A DNA stretch of 64,000 bases from Blasia pusilla (GCA_050084515.1 CM114271.1:45570001-45634000), one strand, 5' to 3'; shown: positions 1-24,200, counted from the first letter of the stretch. Numbers and translations: made by a program. Notes: generated by a model from the letters alone, not told the origin.

Positions 1-343
1 GTATCGCGCTCCTTTATTTTTTGCTTCCGATGTTATGACGTTGGGGGGTACGCCCGCCGAGGCTTTTCGGCTGGCCTCCAGGCTATGTGAGCGTGGAGTT
101 GGAGTTCTTGCATCACGTTCAAAGATGATTGCAGAGGAGGTGATGGACCTGCCCTTGGAGCGGATGCTCGAGCCATCCACGTCAGATTCATGGCAGGCTG
201 CGGCTGCTAGGATGGCAGAGATGCCCGCTGAACCCGCGAAAGAGTGTGCCATGGCTTCTCCTGGTGTTGTGTTGCTAGATAACCAAGGAGAGGTCTTCCA
301 GTTGGTGAGTCCCGGAGGTAGAGCTTTTAGTCCGTAGCGCGTC

Positions 344-703
344 TTGTTGGATTCAGAAGCGCAACCCCTAATGTTGGGGAAAGCGTCATTCAGAGGATTG
401 GGCTTGACGAGAGCCGATATGGAGCGTTGTCCATTCCGGATACAAACATCCTTGGGTGGAGTAAGTACCACACAATATATCACCCGAAAGGAGGTCGTGA
501 TGAGGATTCGCTCGGGACATCCTACAGATGAGTCCGTGGTGCGAGCCAAGGCGATAGTGACTGATGAAGAGACTCACGACGTCTTGGTTGATGGAGCAGT
601 GTTATACTCGATGGGGTTTGCCCTGGATTACTGGGAGGAGTCAGCGTCCGACAGACCAGGATGGCACTCAGGTGATGGGCGTCTTAGCTCATTACCCGTT
701 TGA
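344..703 (+). pseudogene. Retrotransposon aspartic protease (degenerate)
   Basis: VLLDSEAQPLMLG resembles the D(S/T)G active site; downstream HDVLVDGAVL matches the usual D-hydrophobic-G segment; in-frame stops flank it. Confidence 0.7.
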
Positions 704-1062
704 TTCACAAGTGCAGTGATCGAGCAACGGCCAGGAGAGGTGGCGACCTTAGCAGCATTTAGCAGTGCCATCACTTGGCCTAGTGATTTGATTGAGGGAC
801 ATGTCCATGCAGAGGATACTCCCATTCCTGAGATTTCTATGGAGAGGAGTGTTATGGTAGCCGCATCATTCCGCGGAGGAGAGGTATAATTGTGGGGCTC
901 GACTAAGGAGCTTCGATGATTGGCAGATGAGCAGGTGCAGACCGCGTGGAGCAAGGCGTTTGCACCGAAGCGTGATGGGTCTAAGAAACCCGAGGTTGCA
1001 GGGAGTGCTACAATGACACCCTTAGATACCACACCCATTGTGTGGTGTATCCCGGAGGAGGG

Positions 1063-2010
1063 TATTCGAGTGTTAGATCTATTTGGAGGGATTAGCACCT
1101 GGTTAGCTGCTGTTTTGCAGGCAGGAGTGCGAGTGCAGCACTACCTGTATGTGGAGAGTGATGATGTTGCAAGGTGCGTCTCACTACGATATGTGGCGCA
1201 GTTACACGTACGTTTTCCCGACTTCTTGTCTGCGTCCGCGGTACAGGGGTACCAGAGTTCCCTATCGAGGGATATTTTGTTGCTGGGGCATAGGACTTAG
1301 AGCGGGTAGTGACCATTGATTTGGTCATTGTCGGTTGGCCATGTCAAGGCCAATCGAGTGTTGGACGAGGCAACGGGTTGGCTGACACTCGGTCCAGGTT
1401 GTTTTGGGAGATGTTGAGGGTCTTACGACACTTGCAGGAGCACCAAACTTGTTCTCCAGCCTACATTTTGGAGAACGTGCCGATCTTAGGAGACTCTAGG
1501 TCACGGGTGGTGACGACTACTCATCAAGTGCATGCCTGGATCGGCCCAACAATGTTCTTGGATGCGGCGAGTGTAGGGTCTAGAGCCCATCGCCCGCGTC
1601 TATGATGGACCAACTTGGTGCCCCATGCGGTGTTACCGAGGGCGTATGCAAGAGTGGAGCACCCCTTCCATTTGTTAGTGGATTCCATTCTGGATCCAAG
1701 TCGTCGATCACAGGCAGTGAGGCACGATGATCAACCACCATTGACTGTGGTCAACAGGGTAGGCAGGCCGCGGGCAACCTTGCCCACATTTGTGAGTTTT
1801 CCCGCTTCTTATGCATACAAGGAGGCCAGTCCTGGCTTGGTTTAGGATGACCAGGTTCAGCGGTTGGTGGAGCCCAACACCAACGAGAGAGAGCGAGCAA
1901 TGGGATTTCCCACAAGAGTGAGGGCAGTACCGTAAGTGTCAGAGGCATCACGACGCCATGTCTTGGATCAGGCGATGGACTTGAACTGCTTGACATGGAT
2001 CCTCATCTTG
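1063..2010 (+). pseudogene. C5 cytosine DNA methyltransferase domain within retrotransposon pol (non-permuted motif order)
   Basis: Motif I VLDLFGGIST, II YLYVESD, IV IVGWPCQG (Cys codon 1342), VI YILENVP, VIII RAHRPRL-WTN, IX ERERAMGFP, X VLDQAMD. Split by stops and a frameshift. Confidence 0.92.
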
Positions 2011-2342
2011 GGAGTGGCTGAGCAGCGCCATATGAGATCACAACGGTTGCATTGGTGAGCCCCATGCCTACCGAGACGGTGGAGGCAAAGGCTGGGGGCG
2101 AGACCCGAGGAGATCTACACACCAAGGGAGATTGGGAGAGACACCCTTGGACTTCTTGGGATGTTTTGCAAGTACGCCAGGAGATGATAGCCACAACATC
2201 GAGCGTAGTTCCGGGCACTACACATGGAGGAGATCAGACTTTGCAGTTGGCTGCAGGAGAGCGGCCGAGTGTTGTTGTTCGAGACGAGGTTGCACCATAG
2301 CAACCACCGATACCCGCGCCGGAGAGTCCCACCGTAGTCACG

Positions 2343-2619
2343 ATGGAGACTTGGGAGCCAGATATGGGCCCTAAGTTGACAAGAGGAGAGCGGCGCCAGA
2401 TACATCAGTTCCTGAGGAGTTATAGGAGCTGCTTTGCATTTAGCATGGAGGATTTGGGTACGCTAAAGGGACCGAGGATCCGCATTGAGTTTTCGAGTGA
2501 TACGTTGATCTTCCGACGATCCTACAGGTACACTGATATGGAGAGGGCTCTGATTTAGAGTAGGAGCCAGGCTGAGTTTCAGAGGGTCATGGATAGGATC
2601 TTGGCTGGTTTGGATTTTG
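2343..2619 (+). pseudogene. Reverse transcriptase N-terminal part (internally deleted), cut by the MULE insertion
   Basis: LTRGERRQIHQFLRSYRSCFAFS..IFRRSYRY then AEFQRVMDRILAGLDF; the frame resumes at 12366 as ARCYIDDIVVFS. Confidence 0.85.
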
Positions 2620-3317
2620 GGGGGCTGGTATTCTGGCAGGAGAGAGTAAGAGAGGAGAGGAAGAGAGGAAGAGAGGAGAGTCTCTCTTCAAAAAAAAGGG
2701 CCAAATCCGCCTCCTCTCTTCAAAACTTTTTGACAGATTTGAAATTTTTGTTTGCTTTCAAATTCAGGAAATCTTTAGAAGAGAATAGGTAGTGGTCCAT
2801 ATTTGGCCCTAAAAAAACCTCCTTTTTCCTGGGGGCGAAAAAAAGTAGACATCATAAGACCACTACAAACGTTTTTCCATCACTCTCCATGTGAGCCTAA
2901 GTTTCTTAACATTACCTGTCTTGGTCTACAAAAAGCAGTGCTCATGGGTATTTTTGTTAGAGGACCACCCGGATGCCAACCTCTCTTTTTGCAAGGATTG
3001 TTGCCTGCATCATGGCCTCCCTTGAATTGCCCCATAACCAACTTTCTGTTGGTTCTGAATGGTGTCTGCTCAAGACCAACTTTGTGAAATGTGAACACAT
3101 GAGAGGATAATTGAACCAAAAGATTGTTAGCTGTCTGGAGTAAAGAGGAACTAATGTCCCTTCATTCAGATCGTAAAGCTGAGAGACCGAGAAGCTGCAC
3201 CCCTCCCAACCCGTAAAAAAGCTCACCATAAGAAAGGAAAGATTTTTAGAAGTGATTTTCTTCCACCCTGCACCCACAAAAATCTAACAGGTTGGGAATC
3301 CGAAATGGCAATCTGAC

Positions 3318-4410
3318 AGGTAGTAGGAATCCTGCACATCTTAGACAAGAAAAGAAGCCTACAACTGGTTTGACGAATGTAGGGAACGAGCCAAAAGTTA
3401 AGAAGCCCGCCACAATGCGTCAGAAGTTGGTCATAGGGAAAGAGTCCGATCACTCAAGCAGCCAACCTGTCGGAATCCGACAACTTGCCTGGAAATGGTT
3501 AAAAAGTTGCAGTGGGCAAAAAGAAAAAAGTTGCAACCCATCGGAATCATACGGGTTGCAAAATTGTAATTCTGAGTAGCTAAAAGAACACAATCCACAA
3601 GTCCAAAAAAATATTCCAGCTAACTTTTACAAACACCATTATTGGTTGAAAAAATCTCGTCCTTTATTACCTCCGAAGGAACCTCGGAAATGTACATTTG
3701 ACCTAGTCTCCGATTTCTTCAGCCTCATCATCTACAAATTTACTCCTAACTCTCCTCGGTGACAGTACCAAAGGAATGTCCTGGGATACAAGTGGCTCCT
3801 CTAGCCGATTGTAGACAGGGATCGAAAATGTTGGCGAATTCGAGAGCCTTGGCCCCCCCTAGTTACGCCATAACGGTCCCATGTAACATGATTTGAGTCC
3901 CATCGCCTTCCTCGGCAGTATCCCTTGTACGCTCTGCAATATGACATCCATCCAGTATCAATATGTGCTCTGTCCTTGGTAATACTATTATGGAAATCGC
4001 CAGGTAGTAGGAATCCAACACGTCTGAGAGAAGAAAAGAAGCCTACGCCTGCCTTTACGAGTTGAGGGGAAGGTGCCAAGGGAAGAAGCCCGCCAGACTG
4101 CCTCTTAAGTTGGACCAATAGGGAAAGAGTCTGATCAGGCAACCTGTCGGAATCCGACAGGTTGCCTGGAAGTGGTAAAAAGCTGTTGTCGTCAAAAAGT
4201 GAAACTTGCAAGCAGGAGAAATCCAACGGTTTGCAAAATAGAAGTCCGCGGAGTTCATAGACGATCACATTCGAAAAGACAAAAAATGTTCAGCAAACTT
4301 TTGCAAGCACCACCATCGTTCGAAAAAATCATCTCCTTTATATCATCCGAAAAAAGCTCAGAACTGTACATTTGATCTATTCTATGAAATCTTTTGCCTC
4401 ATCATCAAAT
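3318..4410. repeat. Diverged tandem duplication (period ~680 bp) in the MULE left arm
   Basis: CAGGTAGTAGGAATCC..GAAAAGAAGCCTAC..GAAGCCCGCCA..GGGAAAGAGTC..palindrome..GCCTCATCATC occurs at ~3318-3735 and ~4001-4410; also present in copy 2 (~54630-55780). Confidence 0.75.
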
Positions 4411-4462
4411 AGCTCCCTACTCCAAACGCTGCAGTCAAGCTGGGTCCTTGAGTTCTTTGAAC

Positions 4463-7400
4463 TCACTCATCATCGTCCGAGAGCTCTTGCAAAATTACTT
4501 TCGCCCTTGCCCTCCCGATTTTCGGAATCGTTGGAAGTGACGATGGAGTCACTACCAATGGTGGGTCTGGAACCGGAGCTCTCGGCTTCGGTGGAGAGTT
4601 GTACGCCCCAACGAGCCTTTCATATTCTACCTTTGCCTCCTTGCAAAGGTCAAACAGTTCCTGCCTTCCCTCGAGGCAGAGAATGTTTCTGCCACTCTGC
4701 CAGGCGCCTTTGATACTTGCCCCTGAAAGTCCCACTAAGTCGAACACCAAGTCACCCGGCCTTGAGTAGAGCTCGATGAGCGTTTGCATCAGGGCTGGCG
4801 ACTTTTCCCTTCCTCCCAGAAGTGGGGTGCCGTCTTGCATGTAAATTCCCGGGGGGGAATTGTACAAACTATCTAAGCTGTACCCATCTGAGCATGGATC
4901 CACAGGATCTTGGATCTTGAACACCTGGAAATTGTGCTCAGGCCGAACGAAGCAGTAAACGTAGGTCCATCTGTAAAGAACCACGTTGGAAACAATGTCA
5001 GCAACTTGGCACAATGTGCAACACGTCACCAAAGAAGGCTTGACCCTAGAGAACTTTTTTCAATTACTAACTTTGGAGCAACCTGTCGGAGTCCGACGGG
5101 TTGGTCATGGATGGGTTGGCTGGCCTAGAGCAGCCCATGCTCGGCTGAGAGCAACCCGTCGCTTTCTGACGGGTTGCAGCTTTCCGAAAACACAAGGAAA
5201 AACCAAAAGCAACTGTAACCCGTCTGGTTCCGACGGGTTGCAGGTACACCACGGTTTTCCCTGTGTTTCTAGGAAAGATGCAACCCGTCGGGTTCCGACG
5301 GGTTGCAGGTACACCATGGTTTTCCCTGTGTTTCTGGGAAAGATTCAACCCGTCGGAAACCGACGGGTTGCTCTTAGCCGAGCATGGGCTGCTCTAAGCC
5401 AGCAACCCATCGCCTTCCAACGGGTTGCTCACGGACAAAAACATCGAAGATATACTATCTGAAATTCACACGCATTGAGATTATACTAAAGAATTGAGCC
5501 TTACCCGAATCTGACTCACCGCGGATCGGAGTGGGTACTAGTTTTTTATGATCCAAGATTGCGCCGTCCTCCTCTTTAGCGACCTCTTGACGCACAGGAG
5601 GTTGAAGAGCTCGTCCTCGCTCCCTCCAGTCAACACTAAGAAGCAGCCCCTGTCACTCAGATAGGCGTCTGCAAAGGAGAACAATAGCGCCATTTGGTCA
5701 TAAGAGAGCGGCACATTCCTCTCAGGTACCCCGTCCGACGGATTCTCGCCCCACAGTCGCAACCCCGAGGGCACATCAGCGATCAAGAGATCCACCGCAA
5801 CCTCTTTGATCACTCCATTCACCGTCCAGGAAGCATGCCCGTTTCGTTGGAGCTTCCGTCCCACCGTTGTCAATTTATCAATGGCTGGTGTCGACGCTTG
5901 AGAACTGAAGCTTTTCAGCTCATCCAGTAAAGGAGTGAACTGAAGGAGGACGCTTGTCCGGGTCGTTGTTTGTCTGTGTCTTCCCAAGGATGATGGACTG
6001 TATTCTCCTTGGGACAACCCTGGCACCCCTTGCTTCCGCTTCTCTCGAGTCTGTAGACGGCTTGTCGGGGTCTCTATGACCTCAGACTCTGGTGGGGTTT
6101 TTTCCGCCGAAGACCTAGTCCGACCCTCTCTCCCCGCTCACCCGGACGATTCTGCCTCTGGCCTTGAATCTTCAGCCTCTCTTTGGGAAGACTCGGCCTC
6201 GGAATTTTTCCCTCCCCCCGCCTTGCCTTTGAGACCCGCTGTGGATTTGTCTTTGGCTGTGCGGACCTTTGAAGCCAACTCAGTTGTCTCGTGGGCTTGC
6301 TCTTCCGCATCTCCTCCGAAGAAGTCTTCAAGCTGCACAAAATTGGGGATGTTGTCTTGTCCTGAGGCCACTGCATCATGAAGCACTCGTACATACTTAT
6401 TGGTGATGTCTTCAGAGTCGTTGAAGTCAATCCAAATGGGGCAATTCTCCACCTCCCAATCGGACATGTGCTGCCCCATCTCCATGTCGTACATGGAGAA
6501 TGTCTCTCCATCAGGCGGCGAAGCCCACAATTTCAAGGCTGCCGGTAATTTTCCCCAGGTACATGCATTCTTACAATGGACGAGGTACCTGAAGACCATC
6601 CGTTGGGCAGCTTTTACTCGAACTGAATCGGCCGTTTGCTCCTGTAGATCTCGCTTCTTCTTGCTTGATCCCGTTTGTTCCCCTCGATTTCTTCGTCAAG
6701 CTCTGTCTGAGGGAGGACGCAAACCTTGAACATTGTCTTGAATCCTGGGTTTTTGATTGGCTTGTCCCGGATGTCGTCGAGCCAAACCTCGAAATCTACA
6801 GAACTTTCCAGGTTTGCTTCATCCGGAATGGGCTCTAATCTTTTGAGCTCCGCTTGCAGACCGTCCAGCACGGACTTCCCCATAACCCGCAACGCGTCCC
6901 AGAACGACCATTCGCGTAGCCAGTGGGAGATCATTGGATCGGACACACCTAGAGGATGGTGTGCCACCCTCTTTTGGGCCTCTGTGCCCTCGAGACTGAT
7001 TTTCATCAGTTGGATCCTCCTAAACTCGCTTATGCCGGACAACGCAAACCGATGCACGCGATCCAGGGACACTTTCTCCCCAATCCGACCTTGCGGATCT
7101 TCATCCCTTTTCCGCTGGCGCTTGATAATCGCCTTCAACTCCTTGTAAAAATCCCGACCAAGTTCGGGGTTGAGAATGCTGATGTATCGCTACATCTTGC
7201 TCGCCGTGTATTTCGTTGATGCAAATATTGAAGCTTGGATGAATTTCTCACGCTTAGACCCAGATACTTTCTCCCTCCGCTCCAGCTCCAGTGCAGCGCT
7301 CTTCTTCGCGGCCTGTATCTTCGACCAGCAAAGGATGGTTACAGCTCCATCTTGGGAAATAAACTTATTTGCCCAAGTTTTCTTCTTTATCTGTGCACCC

Positions 7401-7549
7401 TTTGCAAGCATCTGATTTACTAGGGCGTCGCCCAAGAACCCCTTGTACTCTGCCGGTGCGTCGTAAGCACCTTCTTCACCCGATCGCAGTCCTCGATCCA
7501 CTGGTGGGTGACATTCCCCTCCGATACAATCTTGCACATCCAAACTCAA
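4463..7549 (-). pseudogene. MULE cargo gene, 3' part: helical region plus beta-class N4C/N6A DNA methyltransferase-like domain (intron 4971-5504)
   Basis: VDLLIADVPSG (5763-5795, like IDLIxxDPPYG) precedes FADAYLSDRGCFLV, then REKSPALMQTLIELYSRPGDLVFDLVGLSG..GAWQSGRNILCLE (like KP..L..LI..S.PGD.VLDPF.GSG...A...GR...G.E). GT-AG intron with CTGAC branch site. Confidence 0.8.
5077..5430. repeat. Array of GCAACCCGTCGG-n-CCGACGGGTTGC palindromes in the methyltransferase intron
   Basis: Several imperfect copies, e.g. 5280-5306 GCAACCCGTCGGGTTCCGACGGGTTGC. Confidence 0.9.
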
Positions 7550-7730
7550 CCCGTCAGAAAATTTGTAAGTTACATGGGTTCCTGCAACCCGTCGGACTCT
7601 GACGGGTCGTCACAGCTCAAGGTCGGATTCTAGCAACGAGCTAAATGATGCAACCCGTCAGAGTCCGACGGATTGCATTCACATTTGTGAATGCCTGATT
7701 TCAACCCGTCGGACTTCGACGGGTTCCAAC
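7545..7730. repeat. Palindrome cluster at the fused intron/promoter junction of copy 1
   Basis: CAACCCGTCGGACTCTGACGGG, CAACCCGTCAGAGTCCGACGGATTG, CAACCCGTCGGACTTCGACGGGTT. Confidence 0.85.
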
Positions 7731-7967
7731 AAAATGAAGTGTGCTTTGCAACCCACGTCTCTGCTTCCCAAATCCGGTAACACATTGCAATGTGAATGAA
7801 TTGCATGCAACAGTGATCCATTGTGTCAGACAATGTCACCTACCGAACTTCATCTTGTTAGTAAAAATCTGTCAGGAGTATCTGTTTTCCTATTCACTAT
7901 AAATTAAAAATTCTCATTCTGATTCTCTTTCTCATTCTCACCCTCCTCCCGTACGAAATTTTTGGGA

Positions 7968-10900
7968 ATGGATAATTATGTGAAGCTCACTGGTGGCAGT
8001 CATCTGGCGGCCCTTCCTCAATCAGAAATCATTTGACCGCAAGCTCGTGAGTCTTTCATAGCAGTGGATGAAAATTTTCTCTCTGTTCGATTTCTTCTCC
8101 AAATTGAAACCATCTTTGTATTCAAAGATGTTAGGATGGACGGTACGGAGGACATAATAGGTGAGAGAGTCCAGCCAATGACTGCAGACCATAAAGTATG
8201 GAATCTCCTATCTCTAGCAAATGGTCAATACAGAGTTTACGGCCTGCCCCTGAATTTGTCTGTTTCCAAAGTAGACGGTGGAGAATTTCCTAGTGCTCCG
8301 AGCTCTACGTTTGCAACTCCTAGCCCAGTACATCCGGCTTCAACTCCAACTTCACACGCTCGTATCAATGTTGTTCTTCCTGAAGAGATTCCGGATGTTA
8401 TCAACCTCAGTGGATCTGTCGGACACCAACCGGGCCCTCTGTCCGCCTACTCGTTCCTCTTGCGAGTATCAGGCAATAGTTTGCTTTCGTCTGGCCTTGA
8501 AAATGTTCAAGCACATTCTTGTCGATTTAGCCGCCGCCACGTATGATGGTAATTGCATTTTTGAGTTGCCTCCACTTGCTGCTCCTGCTCAAAAGAAAGA
8601 CGGAGGACGCCTGAAGGGTATGGACAGAAAGTCTGATTGTCATCGATGGTGCAGGCTTCAACGGACTAGTGCTTCAATTCCAGATGGTCCTTGGATTGTC
8701 TCCCGCCGCCAATGCGTGGGAGCCTTGGAGTGTAGAAGTCCAGCATGCCCGTATCTAGAGCGCAACGGGCGAGTCAATACGTCGCAGTTCCCCCCCAAGA
8801 ATGCAAAAACTCCATACGAGGTCGGTGCCACCATACTGCCGAGAGGCCATCAATGTCCTCATTGTCAGGCATCGCCCTTCTGCGTTGGAGCGTGACCTGC
8901 ATAGATATTTTTCATTGTCCACGACTTGGGCTCCACGTCAAAGTACACAAGGCTGGCAGTTCATGTTGGCTCCCACACTCATCCTGTGATCGATGCAATT
9001 CAAAGACACATCAAGGAGGATGTGGCGAAGAAAGTTGCCGAGGTCTACAGAAACTCTCCGGGTTCAAAGCCCGGAGTGATCAAGCTCACAACGGCATCAA
9101 AAATTTTTGAACAATTGCTTGGAATCCCTGGACAGGGCGAGAGCACGGCGGCTGAGGAGAAACAACTTTGGGAAAATCTCGCATTTCTTGCTGATCCTGA
9201 ATGCTTCCGGAATGAGCTGTGTCAAATATGAGTTTTGGATGGAAAGACGGCCGAAATGGATGCCATCGCCAGAATCAAGGCCAACTCCAGATTTCCATTC
9301 ATTCAGAGATGGCAGTTCATGGGCCAAGGAGGCGAGGGATCCATGGCCTATGTCTTCAAAATGTCAACCATAGGTCCCTCGAGTGGCCTCAATCTTATAG
9401 ATTGAATGAGGGAAGGGGAAGATCTTTACGGCAGCTGGGTAAGCTTTGATATTTGCTACAGAGTGCTGAACGGATGGTTGACGATGGGTGCTCATGTTTA
9501 TGACCATGTGGAGAAGGGACTCAAAACTATATTTGTCTATGAAGTAAAGGCAGAAGACGTTGGCAGTTTGAAGATGTGCTGGTTACTCTTATTGGAGGTG
9601 GTGAAGGAAAACAAAAGGCCACCTCCGGAAATTTATTGGTTCATGGGGGACATTGCACAACCTGGGTGGATTGCTATCTAGGAAGTGTTCTGGGGTGGAG
9701 AGGTTCAACCGGAGAGGGTAAGGTCGGATGCTTTCCATTGGCAACAGTCTGTGACCCAGTACACAAAATCTTGCATCAAGGAGAATAAGAGGACAGAACA
9801 TGTCACTCTACTCCAACGCTGCAAGGACAGCAAAACCTTGAAGCAGGCCATGGAATGCCAGGAAGAACTTCATGGGTGGTGGAGGAAGCATGCGATTGAG
9901 GGGAAGTACAAAGAGTTGTGCTCTTGGTTGAGTTGGTGGACTGTACTTATGAGAGAATGGGGAAACTTCATGCGGCAGGTGAGTTCACTATTTTGTCTTG
10001 TCAAGCTCACGCTGAGAATTTTTTGTAAAGTTGCAGCTCAAGTTGAGAAGCGTGGGAACTATAGGGATTTCAAATCGAAAAAACCAAACAAGCTCTCGGA
10101 TGCGACGGGTTGCCCGAGTGTGCAACCCGACGGAAACTGATGGGTTTCCCAAGTGTGCAACCCGACAGAAACCGAGGGGTTGCATCCAGAATTTGGTGCA
10201 ACCCGAGTGTGCAAGCCAATGGAAACCGATGGGTTGCAGAGTCATTCATGGGATGCCTCGGCCTTGCAACCTGTCTAAATCCGACGGGTTGTAGTAGGTG
10301 GGTTTAGGGTTGCAACACGTCGGGACCCGACGGGTCGCAGAGTCGTTCATGGGATTCCTTGGCCTTGCAACACGTCTGGTTCAGACAGGTAGCTTATGTC
10401 TTTGAATGCTGAGTTATTTTTGTTCCCTTCTAACATTGTCGTCGTTGCAGGGATTGAACGTTCATGAAAATGCCCTCTACCCCAACACAAGTGGAGCAGA
10501 AAGTGTTCATTCCTCCTGGAGGTCATCACAAGCATGCCAACGAATTTCACTTGTGGAGGCATGCCAACAAGTCCAGGCAAGAGCAATGCTACAGTCTGCA
10601 ACATCCCATATCTTCCTCACAAAAGGCATAACAAAAGGAAGGGGGCCGTCGATCTATGAGCTCTATGTCAGGGCGGTTGTGAGATCTGGTGATGAAAAAA
10701 ATGTATGTGGAAGCCTTCAACCGGTGCGTAGCTGGAACTCCCCTCGAGCAAGACGTACACATTGGTGGGGATATTCATGGGCGGGTTTCAAGATGTCCCA
10801 TACAGATGGTGGTAGAGCAGTCCGAGCGAGACTCGTAGAGACCAGATAAGTATCTTGACTTCAGGCAGGTGAAGAGGCAGCATTGAGGAACGAATCGGGT

Positions 10901-11953
10901 GATTGATTTGGATGAGGAAATTACGCCGCCCAGGTATTCGGGGATCCAGGACCCGTCCCAAATCCATGATGGAGTTACTTCTCCAAAATCAGTGAATGTT
11001 TATTTCAAAAGCCCTCCGTTGCTGGAAGTTCGCATCATCCTGTCACTGGGGTGGTTCAACAATATGGGATTCCGGTAATGGAGGTGGATTGCAACCTAAA
11101 ACGGTGGCATATATCTCGGAGCAACCTTGGACGTGGACCCACTTGCAGGGCAGGATCTGATGGCATTAGGAGAGCATGCGGCACTTTCCTAAATAAGAAC
11201 TGTACAAGGACTGGACGACCATTGCCTAGGTTTTGGGGACTCAAAACCTTTGATCGTTTCACGAGGACCGGGGATCAATTGAAGTACTTCTTCTGCCCAA
11301 ATGAATCTTGCGCTTTCCGGAAGTCTTATCCGGTTGCCATTGGAGCTGCGGGGAATACCCCCACGATTTGGCCCATCGCCGCAGATACGAACATCACTCA
11401 AGACGAAGTGGACAATCTTACAAGTCCCGGTTTCAGACTCGTAGACGGGGGAAGTTCGGAGCATGTTCGCATTACAGATACCTTCGAATTTTGTATTCAA
11501 CCCAAGATTGATGTCAACATGTACCTGGAGAAGGTGGATGATCTCAATCCACTATTTCTGTTTGAGTCTAGAAATGGGGTGAAGAGAAACAGAATGTGTA
11601 GGCCAACGGTGGAGAGAGCAAAGTGAATTGCATCAGCTCGGGAGGCAAAAATGGAGATCATCGCCATGAAAGATATCTTGAGTGGCAATGGAATAGGAAG
11701 GATGTATTGGATCAGGAACAACACTGTAAATTCAAGTGTCACAGGGGTGTATGTGGTGCACATCTGTTGCTTTCCCACATGTTCATATGATGACTTTGTC
11801 CAAAGAGAGACAAGTGGCAAAAGGTATTTCCCTTGTAAGCACATGTACTATGTGTTGCTGGTAGTTTTAAGAGAGTCGAAGGTGGGAGTAGGAATCCACC
11901 AACCAATTCTGTCCCTCAAAGAAGTGCGAAGTATTTTAAACAAACCACTTTGA
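7968..11953 (+). pseudogene. MULE transposase: GCM-like Cys/His region, DDE core, C-terminal SWIM finger; intron 9979-10450
   Basis: CVGALECRSPAC..CPHC..HVGSHTH; SFDICYRVLNGW..FMGDIAQPGWIAI..DAFHWQQ; NTSGAESVHS; SWIM CCFPTCSYDDF..PCKHMYYV. In-phase CAG|GTGAG..TTGCAG|GGA intron; several stops. Confidence 0.85.
10095..10390. repeat. Palindrome array in the transposase intron
   Basis: Repeated TGCAACCCG..CGACGGGTTG variants confined to intron 9979-10450. Confidence 0.85.
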
Positions 11954-12365
11954 GGATGCAAAATGAGGTTTTAGATTGTACTTTCATTTTTCAAGAACCT
12001 TCACTTTGAGCTTCAACTCTATTCAGCCCAGGGCAAATGGTAGATTGTTTCCAAACCTTGGATGGAAAAAGTGATTGATTCCACACTTATGATTCCACTG
12101 ATTTTTTAGTTTTGTATATTTTGTGCAATTTGCAACCGGTCGAACTCAGATGGGTTGCCAAAATATGGAAGAGAAAAAAAATTTTGTGGGACTGCTTAAG
12201 AACTGAACAAAAAAGTGCAAAAAAATTCACACAAAAAGTTTCCTCTCTTCAACCCAACAGAAACTCTCTTAAAAAAAAGTATCTATTTCGGTTGAAGGTA
12301 GTTTCCTCTCTCCTCTCTTCCTCTCTTCCTCTCTTCCTCTCCTCTTACCGCACCTCTGGATTTTG

Positions 12366-13315
12366 CTAGGTGTTATATTGATGACATTGTAGTCTTTAGC
12401 GCCACGTTTGAGGAGCATGAGCGACATCTAGAGGAGGTGTTTGGACGATTGCAATCACGTGGGCTGAAGCTACATCCAGGAAAGTGCAAGTTCTTCTACG
12501 ACCAGATTAAGTACTTGGGTCATACGATATACCCAGGGGGCCTTGATGTTCAGCAGACAAAGGTAGAGGCTATCTCACACATTCCACGCCCTACAGATGT
12601 GAGACGTGTTTGTGCATTCATGGGATTGGTGAACTTCTATCGGCGGTACGTCAAGGGATTCAGTTCGATTGCCAAGCCGCTGACCTTGCTGACCAAGGTG
12701 GATCACGAGTGGCACTGGGGGGATGAGCAGGAGCGAGCATTTCAGTTGCTCAAGGACAAGTTGAGCTCCACGCCCATCTTGAGGAGACTGATCAGGGGGT
12801 GTCCTTTCCAGTTGCACACAGATTGGAGCATGTTGGAGCTTGGAGCGGTGCTCACCCAGCATGATGATGAGGGTAGAGAGTTCGTGGTGGCTTACGCTAG
12901 CCGCTCGAACAACGCTTTAGAGGCGAAGTTCAACTCGTATGAGGGTGAGTGCTTGGCTACAGTGTGGGCTGTCACGCATTTCAGGTGTTACTTATTCGGC
13001 AAACCCTTTACCATCATTACTGATCATCAACCACTGAAGTGGTTGATGGAGTCCGACAAGCTTATAGGGAAGCTTGCGAGATGGGCTATGTTGCTGTAGG
13101 AGTGTGATTTTCAGGTGGTACATAGATCTGGGACACTCAACCAGGATGCGGATGGGTTGAGTCGTAACCCATGCCCGAGTCAACGAGATGCGACTAGAGC
13201 TCAATGGCATGGAGAGAGTGATGAGAAGTTAGTGGTAGGATGGCACGCGTCAGGCTATTTAGGCATGTTGGCCTATGGAGAGCCAGAGTATGGAGACTTC
13301 GATGGCGAGGTCTAG
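12366..13315 (+). pseudogene. RT C-terminal part and RNase H of the gypsy element
   Basis: YIDDIVVFS, GLKLHPGKCKF, FMGLVNFYRRYV, LHTDWS, VVAYASR, TDHQPLKWL, NQDADGLSR. Confidence 0.92.
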
Positions 13316-13414
13316 TGGAGAGTCCTTGGATCTCGAGGCCAATGAGGAGATGACAGGTGGCCAAGATATTCATGATGATGGAGTAGTCTTGGAGTACCTT
13401 CGTACTGGCAGCGT

Positions 13415-14694
13415 TGTCGTATAATAAAATCAACCAGTGTGTAAACTCCTTCGTCATTAAGTGTTAGATAGAGTTTCATTAGTATTAAGTAAATTGGCTT
13501 AGAAAAAGGAGATTCTTATGTTTAAACCTCTTTATGGTGCCTCTTTTATGCAGGCCCAACTTTAGGAAAAGGAGGTAATAAATAAAAGATGACTTTATAA
13601 AAGTAAAGTAGTTGCTTTAATGAAAAGCAAAAGTAGTCTTGGTTGGTGGCTAGGTTAGTTGGGGTAATTTGGAAAATATCATGTGGGTAAAAGAGGATAT
13701 TTTGGAAGAGATAAGAGGAAATCTACTTGTATCAAAATGTGATTGGCTAAGCCTTGGGAGGAAGTCATGTGGCACAAGATAAGATAAGCTCTATTTCGTA
13801 CTCTTGTGGATCCCTTGTGAGTATATAAAGAGGAGGGATCTTCAAGGGTTCATCACCTTCTATTCCACATCTTGAGTCTCTCGTGTCTCTCTTGAGTGTA
13901 TGGCTTTGGGATTGCTTGCTCTTCCAATGAGAGTGGATCACCCCTCTTGGGAGAGTAACTTGACTATGGTCTATTCTTTGAGAGATTTATAGAGTGTGGT
14001 GTGTGTGTGTGTGGGGATGAGAGGTTTGTCACCGTAGAGGAGTTTAGTCATACTAAAATAGCGGAAGTTTTGGCTTGTTACTTCCCCAATGAGAGTGGAT
14101 TACCCCTCTTGGGAGAATAACTCCGCCAAAACCCATTCTTGAGGAGAGTAGAGAATATGTGTCAAGCATGGATAGGGGTGGAGCACGAGCTGTGCCCGAC
14201 TTTCCTTTCCTCAATCCTTACCATGTCAAGGTACTCTTTGTAGATAGGCACTGGTTCACTCGCTATTTAGTTTATCACTTTGGGGAGGCATTCATGAACC
14301 AGGTCATGCAATCTCCAACTCCGGTGATTCTTCCTATCGTCACATATGGAAGGACATGGGATTGTACTTTGTATGTCCTTATATAGCCATCCATGGATGT
14401 CAATAGGTCTGGTCAAGTAGGGTTTAACACTAGTTGTGCTATCTTCCTCGTGTACAAACGTAAAATAGTTTATAGGGATTTTATAGTTAGGAATTTCGGG
14501 GTCCGATGTTACGAAGAAGTGATCGCCTCGGCAGATTCCATTTGTGATACATTGGCATCGTGAGAGAATGGAGAGTGTACATCATAATTTTGTATTGAAA
14601 AAGGAGAACTTATTAGAGAGTTCACCTTGCATCGACCGCATCTACCGCAGCGAGAAGGCCCGCCCTTGCTCGAAGAAAGATTCTCGACACGACA
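13415..14694. mobile_element. Solo LTR (1280 bp), copy A, 4-bp TSD GCGT
   Basis: Ends TGTCGT..ACGACA; GCGT at 13411-13414 and 14695-14698; removal restores the host frame TGSVASNVGARERDRIL; near-identical to 58921-60194. Confidence 0.88.
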
Positions 14695-14698
14695 GCGT

Positions 14699-16047
14699 TG
14701 CGAGCAACGTGGGTGCTAGAGAGCGGGATCGAATCCTATAGCGGGCCAGATGATTCCGTTGGGAGGGGACATATGTTTTGAGGGTTTGGGAGGATGGTAG
14801 AGTATGCGTAGTGCCACATTCTTTGCAGAGAGCACGACTAGTGCAGCATGCCCACGAGGAGTTGGGTCACTTTGGGATGAAGCTTAACGTCATGACTTGC
14901 TCCATTCAGATATTGGTGGCGAGGCATGCAGACTGACGTTCAGCAGTTTGTTGCCAGGTGCATGGTGTGTGATCGGGTCCAAGCATCGTTCAATGCTCCA
15001 ACTCCATAATTGCATCTATTACTGATCATGGGCTTAGGGTATAGATGGAGTTTGGATTTTGCAAGACCTTTGCCTTTGACGGAGCGTCACAATTGTTATG
15101 TATTGGTGATTGTCGAGCACTTCTCGAAGTGGATCGAGTTGGTTGCATTGCCTGACAAAGCGAGTGAGGGAGTAGCTTATGCCTTGACAGAGTGCTGAGT
15201 CATTATGACACACAGGCTGAGGTGTTGACAGACAAGGTACCGAGTTTCGCGGTGAGTTCCACGCCTTGTGTGATCAGGCACTGATCGACCACCGTACGAC
15301 TTCGCGAGATCATCCCGAGGCGGAAGGATTAGCGGAGAGAGTTGTGCAGATGGTGAAGAGGGGTTTACCCAAGTATGGCTTGCAGAGAGGTCACCTAGGA
15401 GATTGGGACCTCCAGTTGCCATGGTTGGCGATGGGATACAGATTCAGTAGGGAGGCATCCTGAGCGTCTTTTTCACCGTACTTGCTACTTTATGGCCGGA
15501 TTCCAGATTTACTTGCGGCCATTCGTCGAGATGTTGTAAGGTGCTAGACCTTGATGACCCAGATATATGGATGCGAGCATGTTCTCAGAGGGCTGAGTTG
15601 TTTCAGCGAGTGATGCCCATGGCGTTCGAGAACTTGGCGATTACGCAGCATCAGGGTACGTTGAGGTATGGGACTATTCGGGGTGGTGGTTATCAACCAA
15701 CTATCCGGAGGTTTCATCAAGGAGATTATGTCTACTTGCAGCAGACGGCACCGACAAAGTTGGATATAACTGCTTGTGTTCTCTTGCTGGAGGGACGCAA
15801 TGGTATGGTATGGAAGGACCATGTGCGTAATTGTGCGCCACGTCACCTTCCTAACATTGATGGTACAGTAGATCCAAGCTTAGCAGTAGTTCTTGCAGAC
15901 TTGGGTTGTATGTTGTGTGGTTCTTCACGTGATGCGGCCATAATGCTAATCTGTGATGAATGTTCGAGAGGTTGGCATATGGCGTGTCTGACGCCACCTC
16001 TCACTAGGGTTCTTCGAGGATGATGGATGTGTCCCAAATGTTCATAG
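14699..16047 (+). pseudogene. Integrase (HHCC finger and core) with C-terminal PHD finger
   Basis: HAHEELGHFG..CMVCDR; RWSLDFARPL..EHFSKWIE; HPEAEGLAERVVQ; PHD CMLC..ICDECSRGWHMACLTPPL..WMCPKC (15907-16044). Confidence 0.9.
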
Positions 16048-16235
16048 AGGAGATACTACGTAGGTTTCAATTTCGAATTTTTCTGTGACATGGATGATAG
16101 GAAGGCGACTAACAATGGGGCCACATGAGCACCCGACCTTTTTGCTCTTAGCGTCCTAGAGATGTATGTCGTGGTAGGTAGGGATAGATGGCTATCTGGA
16201 GTTAGAGGGACCTAACCACCAGCTAGAGGGGCGAT

Positions 16236-17004
16236 TGGAGATATTTTGGTACTTCTTGCCTCTGTGTATGGATGCCATGAGTTAGCATGGGATCGTGTGT
16301 GTTTGTGTGTGTGTTCGATGAAAGCGATGTATGTTGTGTAGCGATGTGTATACGCACGATAATTGTGACGACTGTTAGAATAGATCGATGGGATCTAGCA
16401 GAGCGTCTTCACGAGTAGTAGAGGACATGCCCAGGAGGTTGAGGATGACCACCTGAGGCCTCAGGAAACCTGAGAGAGCAATTTTTCCCTTCGTTTCGGC
16501 TCATTTGGAGCCATATAGAGAAACTTACTATTTTGGGTAAGTTTCCATGTTGGTGATAGTTGACTTTCCACTTTGGGAAGTGGCCCTTGACCCGCTACAC
16601 CAGGTCAAAAGCCAAGGAGGTGACCTACGAGCATAGGTTACCGTTGAGAGGGCTTGGGAGAGGGAAGGGAGTATACCTCCAAGAGAGAGAGCTTGAGAGC
16701 TCATTCTCTCTTTGTTGAACCTCTTGGCATGAGGCGGCGGAGCTATGGTCCCTTGCCTTGTGAGTGTAACCCAAGCCTCTCATTAGGAGAGTGGGTTTGG
16801 TTTGACAGGAGAGAGAGAGTGCACACCTTTGAGAGCTATGGTGTGAGATGGTGTAGAGAGAGATTGAATCTTACTTTAATTGGAGATATTTTGGTACTTC
16901 TCGCCTCTGTATATGGATGCCATGAGTGAGCATGGGATCGTGTGTGTTTGTGTGTGTGTTCGATGACAACGATGTATGTTGTGTAGCGATGTGTATGCGC
17001 ACGA
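16236..17004 (+). repeat. 3' LTR of the methyltransferase-bearing gypsy element, with its first 124 bp repeated at 16881-17004
   Basis: Begins TGGAGATA after AGAGGGGCGAT; the homologous LTR piece at 53587 also begins TGGAGATA. Confidence 0.7.
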
Positions 17005-19384
17005 AAACTTCCTCAAGCCAAGTGCGCGAGAGGAGGTGAAAAACTTAGACGTAAGGTCCACATTTGAGTGACAGAAAGTACCATTGTCAAAGTAGTAGTT
17101 CATATTTGCCCCATAAGTAGTTTCCAGCAATGATGTGTAATTAGTTAATTATAATGCATGTGAGGTGTTGTGAATTTGTTTGTTGTTTCCAACTTTCCTT
17201 GTGTTGGCCTTGAAATGATTCAGTGAAAACTCAGAGGAAGGAGTTGGAAAAGATTGGGGAGTACAGATAGATGCTCGTTCAAGCCATTCATTCCTGCACT
17301 TTGAAGTTCCTTGATATGGCCATGGTTGAGAATGGGATTGCAACCATCAAACAACCACTCAGGGACCTTCCTTTCTTCATTGTTGTTGATGAAGGAGACA
17401 ACACTCAATCAGGTGGTAAGGGATCTACCCAAAGCTCCAAAGGTAGTGGTTCTCTACCCGATCCTATATCTTCAGCTTCGTCAAAGCGCCCAATTATTCT
17501 TGTTGATGATACTTACGTTAGCCAGATTGTAGCCATGGAGATCGCCGTTGCATCACCATTATCAAGAGGACCATCAAGTGTTGTTGTGAATCTTAGAATC
17601 TTTTGTTGTGTCTGGCTGAGGTATATCCTGAAAAAGTAGCAGTGAACCATACCTCTGCTGAAATTATTCTGATCCTGGTATCCATCCTTATACTCGGAAA
17701 ATCTCATGTTCTAGCTTGTGCACTTAATGATGATTCCTATGATCTAATTAGTGTGTGCGTCAAGATCCTTTCCAACCCCGATGATGTCATGCAAACTGTA
17801 TGGCTCAAGTATTTTCGGGAGAGCTTTGTGAAAATGATCCCAGAGAGATAGCACCGCGAGACAAAGGAACAACACTGCACATGTGTCTAAAGCACAGTCG
17901 AATGCCCTTAGTGACTTCCATCACTTAAGAGGAGAAAGGTAACGAAACTGAATGGACTTTCCTGTCATTCTAGACAATAGAGAACTTAGTAATTGTTTTG
18001 TGTATCAACTTAGCTAAGAAATTTGTGAGGCATTCAGGGAATGACCCAAATTGATTTGGAAGGTAAGGTGAAGAATCACGTGAAGCAAGCTATTGGGGAG
18101 TTCACTAAAGATCGTGACAACACAAAAAAACTCAACAGAGTTCTACAACTCATAGGATTCAGCGACCCAATTTATTCTTAGGCATATGTGACGGTTCACC
18201 AGATCAACAAGTGAATTCATAATGGCTACCCAAGATCTTCAGTCTATCGAATGTAAGAACTCATTCACATGTTGAGCTCAAATTCTACCAGAATTAGCAT
18301 AGGCGGGAAATGTAAAAGATTCCCATAAGCTCAACCACCTACAAACTCCATCGATGCTACATTAACACACTGAGTCGGCGTGCGTGCCTCAATACAAAGA
18401 CCCCATCACTTCTAAGCCCTTGACTCAACTTTTAGGCCCTCAATTGCACGCCACGGACTCTACTATCAATTCGTTTGAAGTCCCTCTCAATGCTCCATTT
18501 GGAATGCCCCTTTCGAACGAACAAGAACCAACAATCACATTAGAATTGACTTCAACATTGCACGAACCAGCAATGAGATTCTAGCGTGGGAATTGAAGAG
18601 CTTGAAGAGTCTTTCTTGCAAGACATTAGATCCTAGCAAGGTCATCCTAACAATCATATACAAGTAGAAATGGTAACATACAATAGCAAGAGAGTATCCG
18701 ATTGACGACACCTTTTCACATCTCCAACTCCTCCAATAAATCTTGCTCACTCACTTCTAGACCTGGAAGCCTTCTAAATTCCTTACTACCAGGCTATCAG
18801 CCAAAGGTTAGCTTATTTGCAAACACATTCACCGTTTGTAGATGAAATTGAAGACCAAAGTTAGAGGGAACTTTTGAGTGGAAGATAGGCAACCTCCAAT
18901 GTTTAAGGGCCAAATGTCTTTCACTCTCAAGAGAAGTGACTGTTTGTGGATGAAATCGAAGATCAAAGTTAGAGGGAACTTTTGAGTGGAAGAGGTGCCA
19001 TTAAAGCCATAGGCACCGAGTGCATGATGAACCAAATCATCTCTTATTTTTGAAAGTGAGACTTTGGAAGTATATTTTTTCCTTTCCCACACGCCAAACT
19101 GCCGTAAATATGTTTTGAGAGCTTCACTTCTTATAGACTCAATAATTATTTTTTTACTTTTATCCTCCTACTTTTAGTAACCCCCCCTATATTTGGTTAA
19201 TAGTATAGATGCTACCCACGTAGAAATATTTCTTGGCATATGTTACCGCTATACCATATGTTGCCTTTGCGACCCTTAGTGTGGTGAGGGGAAAGGCATT
19301 TGAGGCATCTGTAGAATATTTGGCTCCATTAATTTAGTTATTCTCTTAAATAGGATACATTTTGAAATCGGAGGAGGATTGAAT

Positions 19385-20974: not shown

Positions 20975-21980
20975 AGATGGTCCCCAAGTTACATCTATAA
21001 CTCTTGCAGAGTCTCAACCCAAATGAAGTTGGGACGACAATCTCAAAAATGTCTTTTTTGGACCCAAACCATTAAACCTTGAATGAAAAGAAGGCCTTTT
21101 AATTTTTCATCTTGTCCAACTTTCCTATCTTGAGCTGAATTTTGCAAACATAATCACCAAAGTGTATCTAGCACTCATGCAAAGTTTCATCTAATATGGA
21201 GTTGTTACCAAAACCTAAAAAATTGGTAAGTACTTTTTGGACCCGAACCATTATATTTTCAATCAGAAGAAGACTTTTTCAATTTTAATCTTGTCCAACT
21301 TTCCCATCTTGAGCTAAAATTTGGCCTACATGGTCTTGAAGGTGCATATTCCACTCTACCAAAGTTTCAATTAAAATGGAGTTGTGACCAAAACCTCAAA
21401 AATTAATAAGTCCTTTTTGGACCAGAACCATGTATCAAACCTTCTATCAAAATACAGTTTTTTTATTTTTCATCTTGTCCAACTTTCCCATCTTCAGTTG
21501 AAATTTGGCACACATGGTCCCCAAGGTGGATCACCCACTCTTGAAAAGTTTCACCCACGATGGAGTTGAGACCATAAGATCTAAAATTAATAAGTCTTTT
21601 TTGGACCCGAACATTCAAACCTTTAATCAAAATAAGATTTTTCCAATTTTCATCTTGTCCAACTTTTCCATCTTGAGCTGAAATTTGGCCCATATGGTCT
21701 CCAAGGTGCATGTTCCATTTTTGAAAAGTTTAACCAAAAATCCAGTTGTGAACAAAACCTCAAAAATTAATATATCCTTTTGGACTAGAACCTTATATTA
21801 AACCTTGGATGAAAAGAAGGTCTTTTCATTTTTCATCTTGTCCAACTTTCCATCTTGAGTTGAAATCTGGCAGATATGGTTCTTAAGGAGGATGAAGCAC
21901 TCTTGCAAAGTCTCAAGCAAAATAGAGTTGTGACCAAAACCTCAAAAATTGGTAAGTACTTTTTGGACCAGAACCATCTA
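20975..21980. repeat. ~181-bp tandem repeat, about 5.5 copies
   Basis: TTTTTGGACC..AACC recurs near 21059, 21239, 21419, 21602, 21781, 21964; CATCTTGTCCAACTTT recurs with the same period. Confidence 0.9.
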
Positions 21981-22618
21981 TACTATTAACGAAACATGGG
22001 GAGGTTACTAAAAGGGGAAAGAAAGAAAAGTGAAGACGCTATAAGAAGTGAAGCTTACGAGGAGTTGAATATTTTTTGTGGTTACCAATTTGATGTTAGC
22101 CTTTGGTATTTCTTTTTGCAATCTATTCTTTGCATCTCGGTCCTTCTTGGCATCTCGGCCTCTTTTCTATTGAAATCAGATCTTGGACTATAGTTGGACT
22201 AATCGTGCCGTGGTTGGCATGTGTTCGAGACATTCAAAAATACTAGACGAACATGTGTTGCACACACTGATCACCTGCTAGATGGAGACACATGTAGACG
22301 TTTGACAGACATTGTAAATTTTGAATATCGATAAGTATTTCTTACTTTCCCTCACTTTCCTACTTTGGAGTAGGAAGAGGCGGGAAAACTCGAGTCCTGC
22401 ATCCACGTTGAATCTCGCAGCTTTCTTGCTTCCTAATCTACTTCAAATTGGTAACCCTTCCTTATTTGCATCCATGTCAAATTTGCTTGCTAATGTTCTT
22501 TAATTGTGCAACTCCTCCTTATTTGCTGCCACGTCAAAGTTTTCTTGCAGATTAGTAGCCCGCAACTCCAACTATTATAGCATTTCAGCGCATTGAATTC
22601 ACGATAAGTAGGCCTTCA

Positions 22619-22804: not shown

Positions 22805-24200
22805 TCAAGAATATTGCAAGGGGCAAGAATATAGTTGAGCCGTAGTAAAAATCTCCTCACCTTCTATCCAAAAATTGTGATTGGCCAAAGTAGTCTCAAT
22901 CTCTCGTGCCTTCTCCCTTTGCCTCCCATCCTTGCCATTGAAATACTCCCTGAAAGCATTGGTGGCAACCATGGCATGGAACGCCTCCCTCAATTGTAAG
23001 ACGCATCCCAACATGATAAAGTTTGTGGGAAAGCGTGTGTTTGAATGAAGCAAAAATTGTCTCTTCACTAGATTGGTTTCCATGAATTTGGTCGTCACCC
23101 AAGTTCTAGTCTTCACCAATACTACCATCTCACGAGCTTGTGCAAAAATCTTGTCTATCCAAGGCCATTTACCCCACTCTTCGCAGACTAGATCAAGAGA
23201 ATGTGATACCCATCCATCCCAAAGAATATGAGGAAACTTTGCTTTGATAAGTTTCCCTATTGCTCCCTCATTGCTAGCATTGTCTATCACAAGTTGCAAC
23301 ACATTCTCTAGACTGATGGGCATGATAGTTCTCTCTATGTGACTTGCCAACCATTCAGCCATTTGGGATTCCCCCTTGGTGTCTACCAACTTAATCATAA
23401 CCTCACCTTGTGGACACGAGACCATGATGTTCACTAAAGACTCGCTCCTCACATTGGTCCAAGAATCCGTTATGATCATGGCCCCCAAACGCAAATTTTC
23501 TAATATGCCATCCACCTTTTCCTTCACCTTCCCCATATGTTTCTCAAGTAGGGTGGTGCACAACGAATTGTAACTAGGACTTGAGTAACCCTTCACCTTT
23601 TTTGTTGCCAACACTGCTTGTTTGAAAATATCTTGTTGTACTACGTTGAATGGTATTCCATATTTGTAGAAAAACTTTGCCCACATGCCATTTATAAATT
23701 ATATTCCTTGGATGTTGAAAGAAACTCTCAGATTGGCTTGCTTCTTCCCATAATACTCTCCCTGAAATGGGCCCAACAAGTCCTCTGCATTCCTCGAGAC
23801 TGTCACACGGTGGTATGTCTGCAACCCCATCAACATTTTGCACAACATAGACACTATTTTTTGTATGTTTTGAACCTATTTATAATGGAGTCATTTCTTC
23901 CACTTTACTCGTAGGTCTTGCTTCCCTTCTTTGTCCATTTCCAAGTTGTAACTTATTTCAGAGATCCCATTGCACGTTGGGGGGGACCTTCATACATAAT
24001 TTGGCATGATGGTTATCTTGATTCCCATCCTTTATCTTTCATCTCTCTCCTATAAAATACTCCACCATCCACCTGCTATGATAGGTTTTCATAGAAGAAG
24101 AACAATACTTGCATTGCCATGTGCTTGATGTTCCACCTTCCACCTGTACTTCTTCCAAATGTTCCTTCATAACATGTTGGAGTTCTCTAGCTTTGGTCAT
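22805..24200 (-). pseudogene. hAT-family transposase remnant (BED-like finger plus DUF659-type core)
   Basis: WAKFFYKYGIPFNVV..SPSYNSL..ITDSWTNVRSESLVNIMV..QLVIDNASN..FPHILW..HSLDL..TRFPTNF; upstream WQCKYC..HHAKLC. Confidence 0.85.

Follow-up and report, generated by a model that had tools for sequence, protein, structure and literature searches.

Retrotransposons that carry a DNA methyltransferase (DNMT) have been described in Symbiodinium and in Klebsormidium nitens (de Mendoza et al. 2018, PMC5890265), and the available text of that paper mentions neither Marchantia nor liverworts. A 2026 preprint refers, in the part available, to "streptophytes (Gypsy-DNMT3)", and the accessible text of PMC12344493 cites the same source, PMC5890265. 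No report of DNMT-carrying retrotransposons from a land plant was found in the literature searched, which did not cover subscription journals and supplements. The element considered here lies in a stretch of 64,000 nucleotides from Blasia pusilla (GCA_050084515.1, CM114271.1:45570001-45634000; hereafter the window). From before its first position to ~17007 the window is, with high confidence, a single old and dead insertion of the Ty3/Gypsy type, whose family encodes a DNMT3-like DNMT as a fixed part. This confidence applies to the identity and the anatomy of the element; readthrough, methylation and targeting by a PHD finger are graded on their own below.

According to the available text of PMC5890265, KnitGypsy-Dnmt3 of K. 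nitens shares with the window family the Gypsy-type structure, an intronless and non-rearranged Dnmt3-like domain within the coding region, a streptophyte host, conserved key residues and a Ka/Ks ratio below 0.2 (0.086-0.15 in the window family). Its repeat layout, given as "A-coding-B-A-B" in the legend of Fig. 4c, is found complete in one relative (L078; L numbers denote the loci described below) and for the 3' part in the window and in L003. The two differ in that the host of the window element is an apparent land plant and in that most relatives of the window element end after the first B repeat (B1). The likeness is by description only, as K. nitens sequences were not among the relatives obtained from protein searches. 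The Symbiodinium elements SymbioDIRS-Dnmt3 and SymbioLINE-Dnmt also carry a retrotransposon C5 DNMT under purifying selection, Dnmt3-like in the DIRS elements, but they belong to tyrosine recombinase or LINE endonuclease classes in a dinoflagellate host, and in the available text the authors judged the acquisition independent (PMC5890265).

The methyltransferase domain and its retrotransposon family

A first-pass annotation, made from the sequence alone, had read the region at 1063-2010 as an intronless C5 methyltransferase, lying between the protease (PR) and the reverse transcriptase (RT) of a Gypsy element and not permuted in the manner of the plant DRMs. Motifs I, IV, VI, VIII, IX and X were located in this order on the plus strand (table 1), and the open reading frame (ORF) at 1294-1602 matches Pfam PF00145 at E 8.6e-12 (45.5 bits against a cut-off of 22), which is far beyond chance. 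A retropepsin-like region lies upstream and RT downstream, the domain is collinear in alignment with intronless relatives, and the motif order is canonical; this part of the annotation holds.

Relatives were collected among proteins (P numbers) and in metagenome DNA (L numbers). Of 1671 candidates in a word-indexed protein search, 36 passed E<=1e-3, with identities of 58-66% in the best of them; E values as low as 1e-98 go with identities of 62-66%. The named rows comprise 13 from Marchantia polymorpha, two from Calypogeia fissa and two from Sphagnum, and databases list the close relatives from these three genera and from Closterium as hypothetical proteins. The occurrence in a land plant, which had been singled out as a notable case, is thus upheld, though not as a lone one, and the novelty of the land-plant elements lies in their description, not in their occurrence. 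The DNA scan yielded 254 pattern matches, of which 149 were confirmed as relatives and 80 loci were kept. The DNMT is found at the same place in all 80 loci, with PR upstream in 49 of the 51 testable loci and RT downstream in 50 out of 56, and every locus with enough flanking sequence has the layout GAG-PR-DNMT-RT-RH-IN-PHD (RH, RNase H; IN, integrase).

Intact relatives consist of a first ORF (ORF1) with gag (CCHC), protease and DNMT, an in-frame UAG followed by CAA or CAG, and a second ORF (ORF2) with RT, RNase H, integrase and a PHD finger. The most complete case, L066 from environmental DNA, is intact throughout (ORF1 of 1369 aa, TAG, ORF2 of 1047 aa). Pfam identifies PR and DNA_methylase in its ORF1 and RVT_1, RNase H, H2C2, rve and PHD in its ORF2, all above the cut-offs except for PR (22.4 against 24.3 bits). 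In the protein P0033, CCHC, protease, DNA_methylase, RVT_1 and RNase H were found by Pfam in one ORF of 1875 aa, and the other proteins among the six examined with Pfam give matching partial domain orders. No repeats or duplications were found to bound the DNMT domain, which in L066 is part of an uninterrupted gag-PR-DNMT ORF, and DNMT and RT share one frame in all nine intact copies that have RT, with the in-frame stop intervening. The earlier view of an integral polyprotein domain therefore needs to be divided: the domain is a fixed part of the family, but it ends ORF1, with a stop before RT, and is not a plain internal pol domain.

The ratio of nonsynonymous to synonymous substitution rates (dN/dS, Nei-Gojobori) of the DNMT was computed on the loci with a stop-free domain, more distant pairs being saturated. 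The values are 0.139 for L066-L069 (dS 0.27), 0.10 for L066-L074 and 0.086 for L069-L074, while L001 compared with the L004 group gives 0.13-0.15. Between subfamilies the DNMT is thereby shown to be under purifying selection. An alignment of 15 family members shows no variation in the catalytic motifs (PCQ, ENV, RxR) or in the S-adenosylmethionine (SAM) motif I.

A profile built from ten family members was searched against all PDB sequences. The best matches were DNMT3A (2e-18), DNMT3C (4e-17) and DNMT3B (3e-16), followed by tobacco DRM (2.6e-9), HaeIII (3.5e-7), HhaI (6e-7), AtDRM2 (1.4e-5) and DNMT2 (1e-4), and DNMT1 was absent from the matches at E<=0.01. The window fragment alone gives the same order with weaker values. 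An AlphaFold2 model of the intact L066 domain (pLDDT 69.6, pTM 0.70, from a 15-row alignment) matched DNMT3A, DNMT3B and DNMT3C only among the Foldseek matches listed (best E 4.9e-15, target-normalised TM 0.76-0.80), and a look-up of the Marchantia domain in the ESM Atlas returned generic PF00145 clusters only. Profile and predicted fold thus support a DNMT3-like enzyme, closest to DNMT3 in a ranking of scores and not in a phylogeny. The family domain shares the catalytic fold and the motif order of DNMT3 with the host DNMT3/DRM enzymes, but has no PWWP, ADD or DUF partners, is fused to gag-PR and is not circularly permuted like DRM.

Several observations weigh against the main reading. The domain is free of stops in only 10 of the 80 loci, and most copies are dead. 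The recent copies L004, L008, L011 and L012 have dN/dS values of 0.56-0.69, as expected from decay after insertion, and add no support. The relatives obtained from the protein searches are transposon-borne only and include no host DNMT3 or DRM. Lastly, the window copy is a pseudogene that cannot work, and therefore no methylation is attributed to it.

The remnant of PR and DNMT in the window is not an open frame but contains seven in-frame stops and two frameshifts. Four stops fall in 2-1290 (frame 2) and three in 1294-2057 (frame 1: TGA at 1603, TAG at 1843 and TAA at 1933), of which the TGA and the TAG occupy the places of conserved tryptophans, and the frameshifts lie near 1285-1293 and near 2010-2057. 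The protease and the PR region of P0008 from Marchantia share 49% identity, and the active site of the window copy is changed from DSG to DSE (VLLDSEAQ, 341-364). This protease was not called by Pfam even when stops were read through as X; PF13650 is matched by the protease of the relatives P0033, P0027 and L066. RT has an internal deletion of ~114 codons near 2559-2571, after which AEFQRVMDRILAGLDF at 2571-2618 matches residues ~211-226 of the L066 ORF2, and the segment beyond the nested transposon is 63% identical to residues 227-534 of the same ORF2. The ~1.4 kb that separate RNase H from integrase are probably a further insertion, and clear insertion ends were sought in this segment without any being found. 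The integrase region is interrupted by three or more frameshifts and three or more stops, with five stops over all ORF2 segments, and matches Integrase_H2C2 (6.8e-7), PHD (1.3e-10) and rve (5.3e-5; 23.9 bits, under the cut-off of 32.6 bits). The Ty3/Gypsy pol order PR-RT-RNaseH-IN with an rve integrase is thus present in the window, PR by alignment only and rve below the cut-off. A second copy of the element was not found within the 64 kb of the window. Nine entries from six studies were listed among sequencing runs as sharing part of the stretch, none of them half or more of its words and none listed as RNA, which carries no information on expression.

Table 1. Features of the DNMT-bearing insertion; coordinates are counted from the first position of the window.
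Feature	Coordinates	Strand	Basis or remark
ORF1 remnant (gag-PR-DNMT; gag and 5' repeat off the window)	1-2297	+	tblastn to Marchantia P0008 residues 526-1243
Retropepsin-like protease	338-703	+	aligns to VLLDSGAQPLMLGK of P0008, P0005 and P0016
DNMT3-like C5 DNA methyltransferase domain, pseudogenised	1063-2010	+	motifs I-X in canonical order and PF00145
C5 motif I, LDLFGGIST	1073-1099	+	frame 2
C5 motif IV, GWPCQG	1333-1350	+	frame 1
C5 motif VI, ILENVP	1465-1482	+	frame 1
C5 motif VIII, SRAHRPRL	1579-1602	+	frame 1
C5 motif IX, ERERAMGFP	1885-1911	+	frame 1
C5 motif X, LDQAMDLN	1963-1986	+	frame 1
Conserved in-frame stop between ORF1 and ORF2 (TAG, then CAACCA)	2298-2306	+	fits type I readthrough context UAG-CARYYA
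ORF2 start (RT N-terminus)	2301-2619	+	tblastn, L066 ORF2 residues 21-96 at 2343-2570; RT from ~2346
Nested DNA transposon splitting RT (9,737 nt)	2620-12356	.	terminal inverted repeats and 9-bp target duplication
RT C-terminal part (YIDD) and RNase H	12356-13273	+	Pfam RVT_1 8.5e-14, RT_RNaseH 5e-32
Segment of ~1.4 kb between RNase H and integrase	13274-14684	.	spans ~35 codons of relatives
Integrase (H2C2 zinc finger, rve core) and C-terminal PHD finger	14685-16071	+	Pfam, tblastn
3' end	16223-17007	+	
Purine-rich run, like a polypurine tract	16223-16233	+	
Repeat B1	16234-16362	+	
Repeat A2	16363-16878	+	
Repeat B2	16879-17007	+	

The stop codon between methyltransferase and reverse transcriptase

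The stop that separates the two ORFs was surveyed in 58 copies (57 loci and the window). An in-frame stop ~66 nt before the RT match is present at the homologous place in 54 of them. In 48 copies it is TAG or TAA followed by CAA or CAG, in a further six the stop is retained but the codon after it differs, and two copies read TAC. The available text of PMC5382211 gives UAG-CARYYA as the type I readthrough context of plant viruses. This context is fitted by the window and L001 (TAG CAA CCA), by L066 and L069 (TAG CAG TTA) and by L074 (TAG CAA TCA). The likeness to the tobamovirus leaky stop, as far as the available text goes (PMC5382211), lies in a UAG followed by CAA-CCA, CAG-UUA or CAA-UCA upstream of the polymerase; the present case differs in that the element is a retrotransposon and not an RNA virus, that most copies have CAA-CCC and that readthrough is predicted from the sequence.

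On this evidence Gag-PR-DNMT would be the main product, with RT-RH-IN-PHD probably made through occasional readthrough of the UAG. The DNMT stands in ORF1 ahead of the proposed leaky stop, and it is therefore proposed that the methyltransferase would be made, and probably packaged, at Gag-like levels. An alternative, unlikely on balance though of some weight, is that ORF2 is expressed by splicing, reinitiation or a separate transcript, or that the stop is a shared inactivating mutation of a large dead subfamily. It draws on three facts that count against readthrough: the sequence after the stop is CAACCC in 40 of the 48 contexts, an imperfect match without the last A of CARYYA; most of the loci that carry the stop are decayed; and a sister group (P0033, P0215 and P0343) has one continuous ORF without the stop. 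However, the stop is common to subfamilies that are only ~49% identical in protein and is the sole stop in the 2,416 codons of L066, ORF1 and ORF2 are in one frame in each of the intact copies with RT, and the corresponding tail is where the Marchantia models P0006 and P0008 stop.

L004, L025, L029 and L072 (at 9617-9619 of each locus) as well as L001 and L008 have a different stop in common, which lies between protease and DNMT at ~380 nt before the DNMT match. It gives DNMT-only ORFs of 438-451 aa and is not present in L066. It could be a mutation shared within a single subfamily or another site of recoding.

Terminal repeats, nested transposon and other features of the window

The 3' end of the window element consists of two B repeats of 129 nt on either side of an A repeat of 516 nt, B1 and B2 being 95.2% identical over 126 nt; its 5' end lies off the window. 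The complete arrangement A-coding-B-A-B is found in L078 (A1 1765-2074, coding region, B1 10380-10494, A2 10497-10837, B2 10857-10971). L003 has B1-A2-B2 and L004 has A1, B1 and A2, at which point the locus ends, and the purine run before B1 is conserved in the window, L003 and L078. The generality of this arrangement is put in doubt by 12 loci whose 3' flank extends over 1 kb or more and which end right after B1 with unrelated flanks, some of them being duplicates of one insertion. These copies are of the form A-internal-B with TG...CA ends. The two ends of the relatives are unlike, A at the 5' end and B at the 3' end. One clean 4-bp duplication (TTCA, in L052) was found among four loci checked. 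Two standard forms of a long terminal repeat were considered and rejected: B+A, as none of the 17 loci with a 5' A has a B in front of A1, and A+B, as A1 is not followed by B.

RT of the window copy is split by a nested DNA transposon with inverted repeats at 2643-2680 and 12308-12345, flanked by the 9-bp target duplication TGGATTTTG at 2611-2619 and 12357-12365. RT resumes seamlessly past the insertion, the junction in protein lying between LDF and ARCYIDD. From its 9-bp duplication and terminal inverted repeats the transposon is presumably Mutator-like, and a second, partial copy is present at ~55700-58900. Its ORF at 4463-5056 (-) shows weak similarity to PF01555 (N6_N4_Mtase; E 9.2e-5, under the cut-off) and to M.RsrI and DpnA in PDB (E 0.02-0.03), and an upstream ORF at 5538-6134 (-) reads LLIADVPSG where a DPPY-like motif would be expected. 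Very similar ORFs are found at 56805-57245 (-). The DNA transposon family may carry a gene resembling an adenine or N4-cytosine methyltransferase. Many copies of a palindrome of ~29 nt (TGCAACCCGTCGG..CCGACGGGTTGCA) lie at 3459-12158 inside the transposon and may be subterminal binding-site repeats.

Elsewhere in the window, a tandem array of ~5 units of ~180 nt occupies 21046-21981 in an AT-rich stretch with a GC content of ~0.30. The only clear host gene noticed consists of plant-type receptor-like kinase exons (HRDIKPSNILL, DFGISK) at 32798-33899 (-), identified by eye. This gene and the grouping of the element with liverwort copies would fit a land-plant host, probably a bryophyte. Likely transposon remnants, also identified by eye, are a hAT-like transposase ORF at 22805-23698 (-), a Copia-like RNase H/RT tail at 49636-50178 (+) and two copies of a coiled-coil ORF at 40860-41645 and 44039-44965 (+).

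Possible roles and evolution of the family

The nearest solved relatives of the PHD finger of L066 are those of CHD4, PHF12, PHF21A, KDM5A, KDM5B and ATXR5. The PHD fingers of CHD4, PHF12, PHF21A, KDM5 and ATXR5 mostly bind histone H3 that is unmethylated at K4. Chromoviruses, which are also mentioned in the 2026 preprint, are Gypsy elements with a chromodomain on the integrase. As in the window family, their integrase ends in a histone-reading domain with a presumed role in targeting; the window family has a PHD finger in its place. As a tentative model, the DNMT would methylate the element's own cDNA or the new insertion, and the PHD finger on the integrase would steer insertion to chromatin with unmodified H3K4.

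It is rather improbable, though by no means negligible, that the domain is integral and selected but does not methylate element DNA, acting instead on RNA or on host chromatin in trans, or serving the particle as a structural or DNA-binding component. According to the available text of PMC5890265 (de Mendoza et al. 2018), SymbioLINE-Dnmt did not methylate DNA in yeast, and RNA methylation is discussed there. In the family of the window, the invariance of the catalytic motifs and of SAM motif I and the match of the modelled fold to DNA-bound DNMT3 structures argue for DNA as the substrate; the dN/dS of ~0.1 fits a working enzyme and names no substrate. Domestication of the gag-PR-DNMT ORF1 as a bryophyte host gene, so that the Marchantia proteins would be host genes, is very improbable. 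Support comes from the Marchantia annotation, where models such as Mp_4g09160 and Mp_8g17980 stop behind the DNMT and are listed as genes, but the copies are many and near-identical (P0008 stands for 18 member sequences), other Marchantia models run on into RT-RNase H (P0010), and the DNA of relatives shows RT-RH-IN-PHD downstream and terminal repeats at the bounds. A host DNMT3 gene or pseudogene that came to lie in this one Gypsy copy by chance or by a single capture would agree with the DNMT3-like sequence and fold and with a broken window copy that alone cannot show co-translation, but is refuted at the family level, leaving it next to no probability, by the position between PR and RT in every related locus, the shared frame in the intact copies with RT and the uninterrupted, unbounded domain in the ORF1 of L066.

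The wider family was explored with a search using the DNMT part of P0037, which returned 113 proteins, mostly of the order RT-RNaseH-DNMT-IN-PHD and including Monoraphidium neglectum (MNEG_11595) and Cymbomonas tetramitiformis (CYMTET_8324). The DNMT of these algal elements, which also include many metagenome ORFs, is a related domain (38-48% identity), and they share with the window family an integrase with a C-terminal PHD finger, but their DNMT lies between RNase H and integrase and not between PR and RT. A published description of these elements as such was not found. The proteins P0037-P0142 are apparently an algal Gypsy group; some add a G-patch (PF01585) or a chromodomain (PF00385), and one is filed under the name of a bacterial metagenome-assembled genome, presumably as a mislabelled eukaryotic contig. 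A hidden Markov model search of 1.84 billion representatives found 12,153 proteins at E<=1e-3, 2,469 at E<=1e-10 and 512 at E<=1e-30. Two Closterium proteins were named in one cluster look-up, both with the PR-DNMT order. Closterium belongs to the class Zygnematophyceae, the closest algal relative of land plants.

A FastTree phylogeny was calculated for 143 DNMT domains (148 proteins with a domain match, minus six short matches, plus the window fragment P0001), in which the two layouts, PR-DNMT and RH-DNMT-IN, need one change. In a quick IQ-TREE phylogeny of 60 hand-picked rows (35 PR-DNMT and 25 RH-DNMT-IN, the long-branched P0139 being excluded), one branch splits the two layouts (SH-aLRT 99), the earliest branches on the PR-DNMT side are Closterium and the forms with a single ORF, and the window falls into a clade of 14 rows with Marchantia and Calypogeia copies (SH-aLRT 100). 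The DNMT tree is unrooted and therefore does not tell the direction of the layout change. By the published description, the family is a land-plant and Closterium branch of the kind described in Klebsormidium; what is new is that the DNMT stands in ORF1 before a conserved stop, that the integrase carries a PHD finger and that the algal relatives have their DNMT at another place.

Overall, the data may be drawn together, with less than even confidence, into an old green-lineage retrotransposon family that would carry both a writer of chromatin marks (the DNMT3-like enzyme, made at Gag-like levels ahead of a leaky UAG) and a reader (the PHD finger, for H3 unmethylated at K4). The DNMT would have changed its place once, sitting behind RNase H in elements of the chlorophyte type and behind protease in those of the streptophyte type, and the streptophyte type would extend from Closterium to liverworts and mosses, with near-identical and seemingly intact ORF1 copies in Marchantia polymorpha. 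The window copy, a fossil, is itself a dead witness only. Such elements have so far been studied only in Symbiodinium and Klebsormidium, as far as the available text of PMC5890265 goes, and the present evidence extends the kind to land plants. If the family is indeed one of writer and reader, transposon-encoded DNA methylation would be testable in a genetically tractable land plant. Cytosine methylation is the main means by which plants silence transposons, which makes a transposon with a de novo methyltransferase of its own a paradox. Marchantia is transformable and methylation mutants exist, and therefore the target of the enzyme, whether it helps or restrains the element, and the readthrough of the stop could be asked there.

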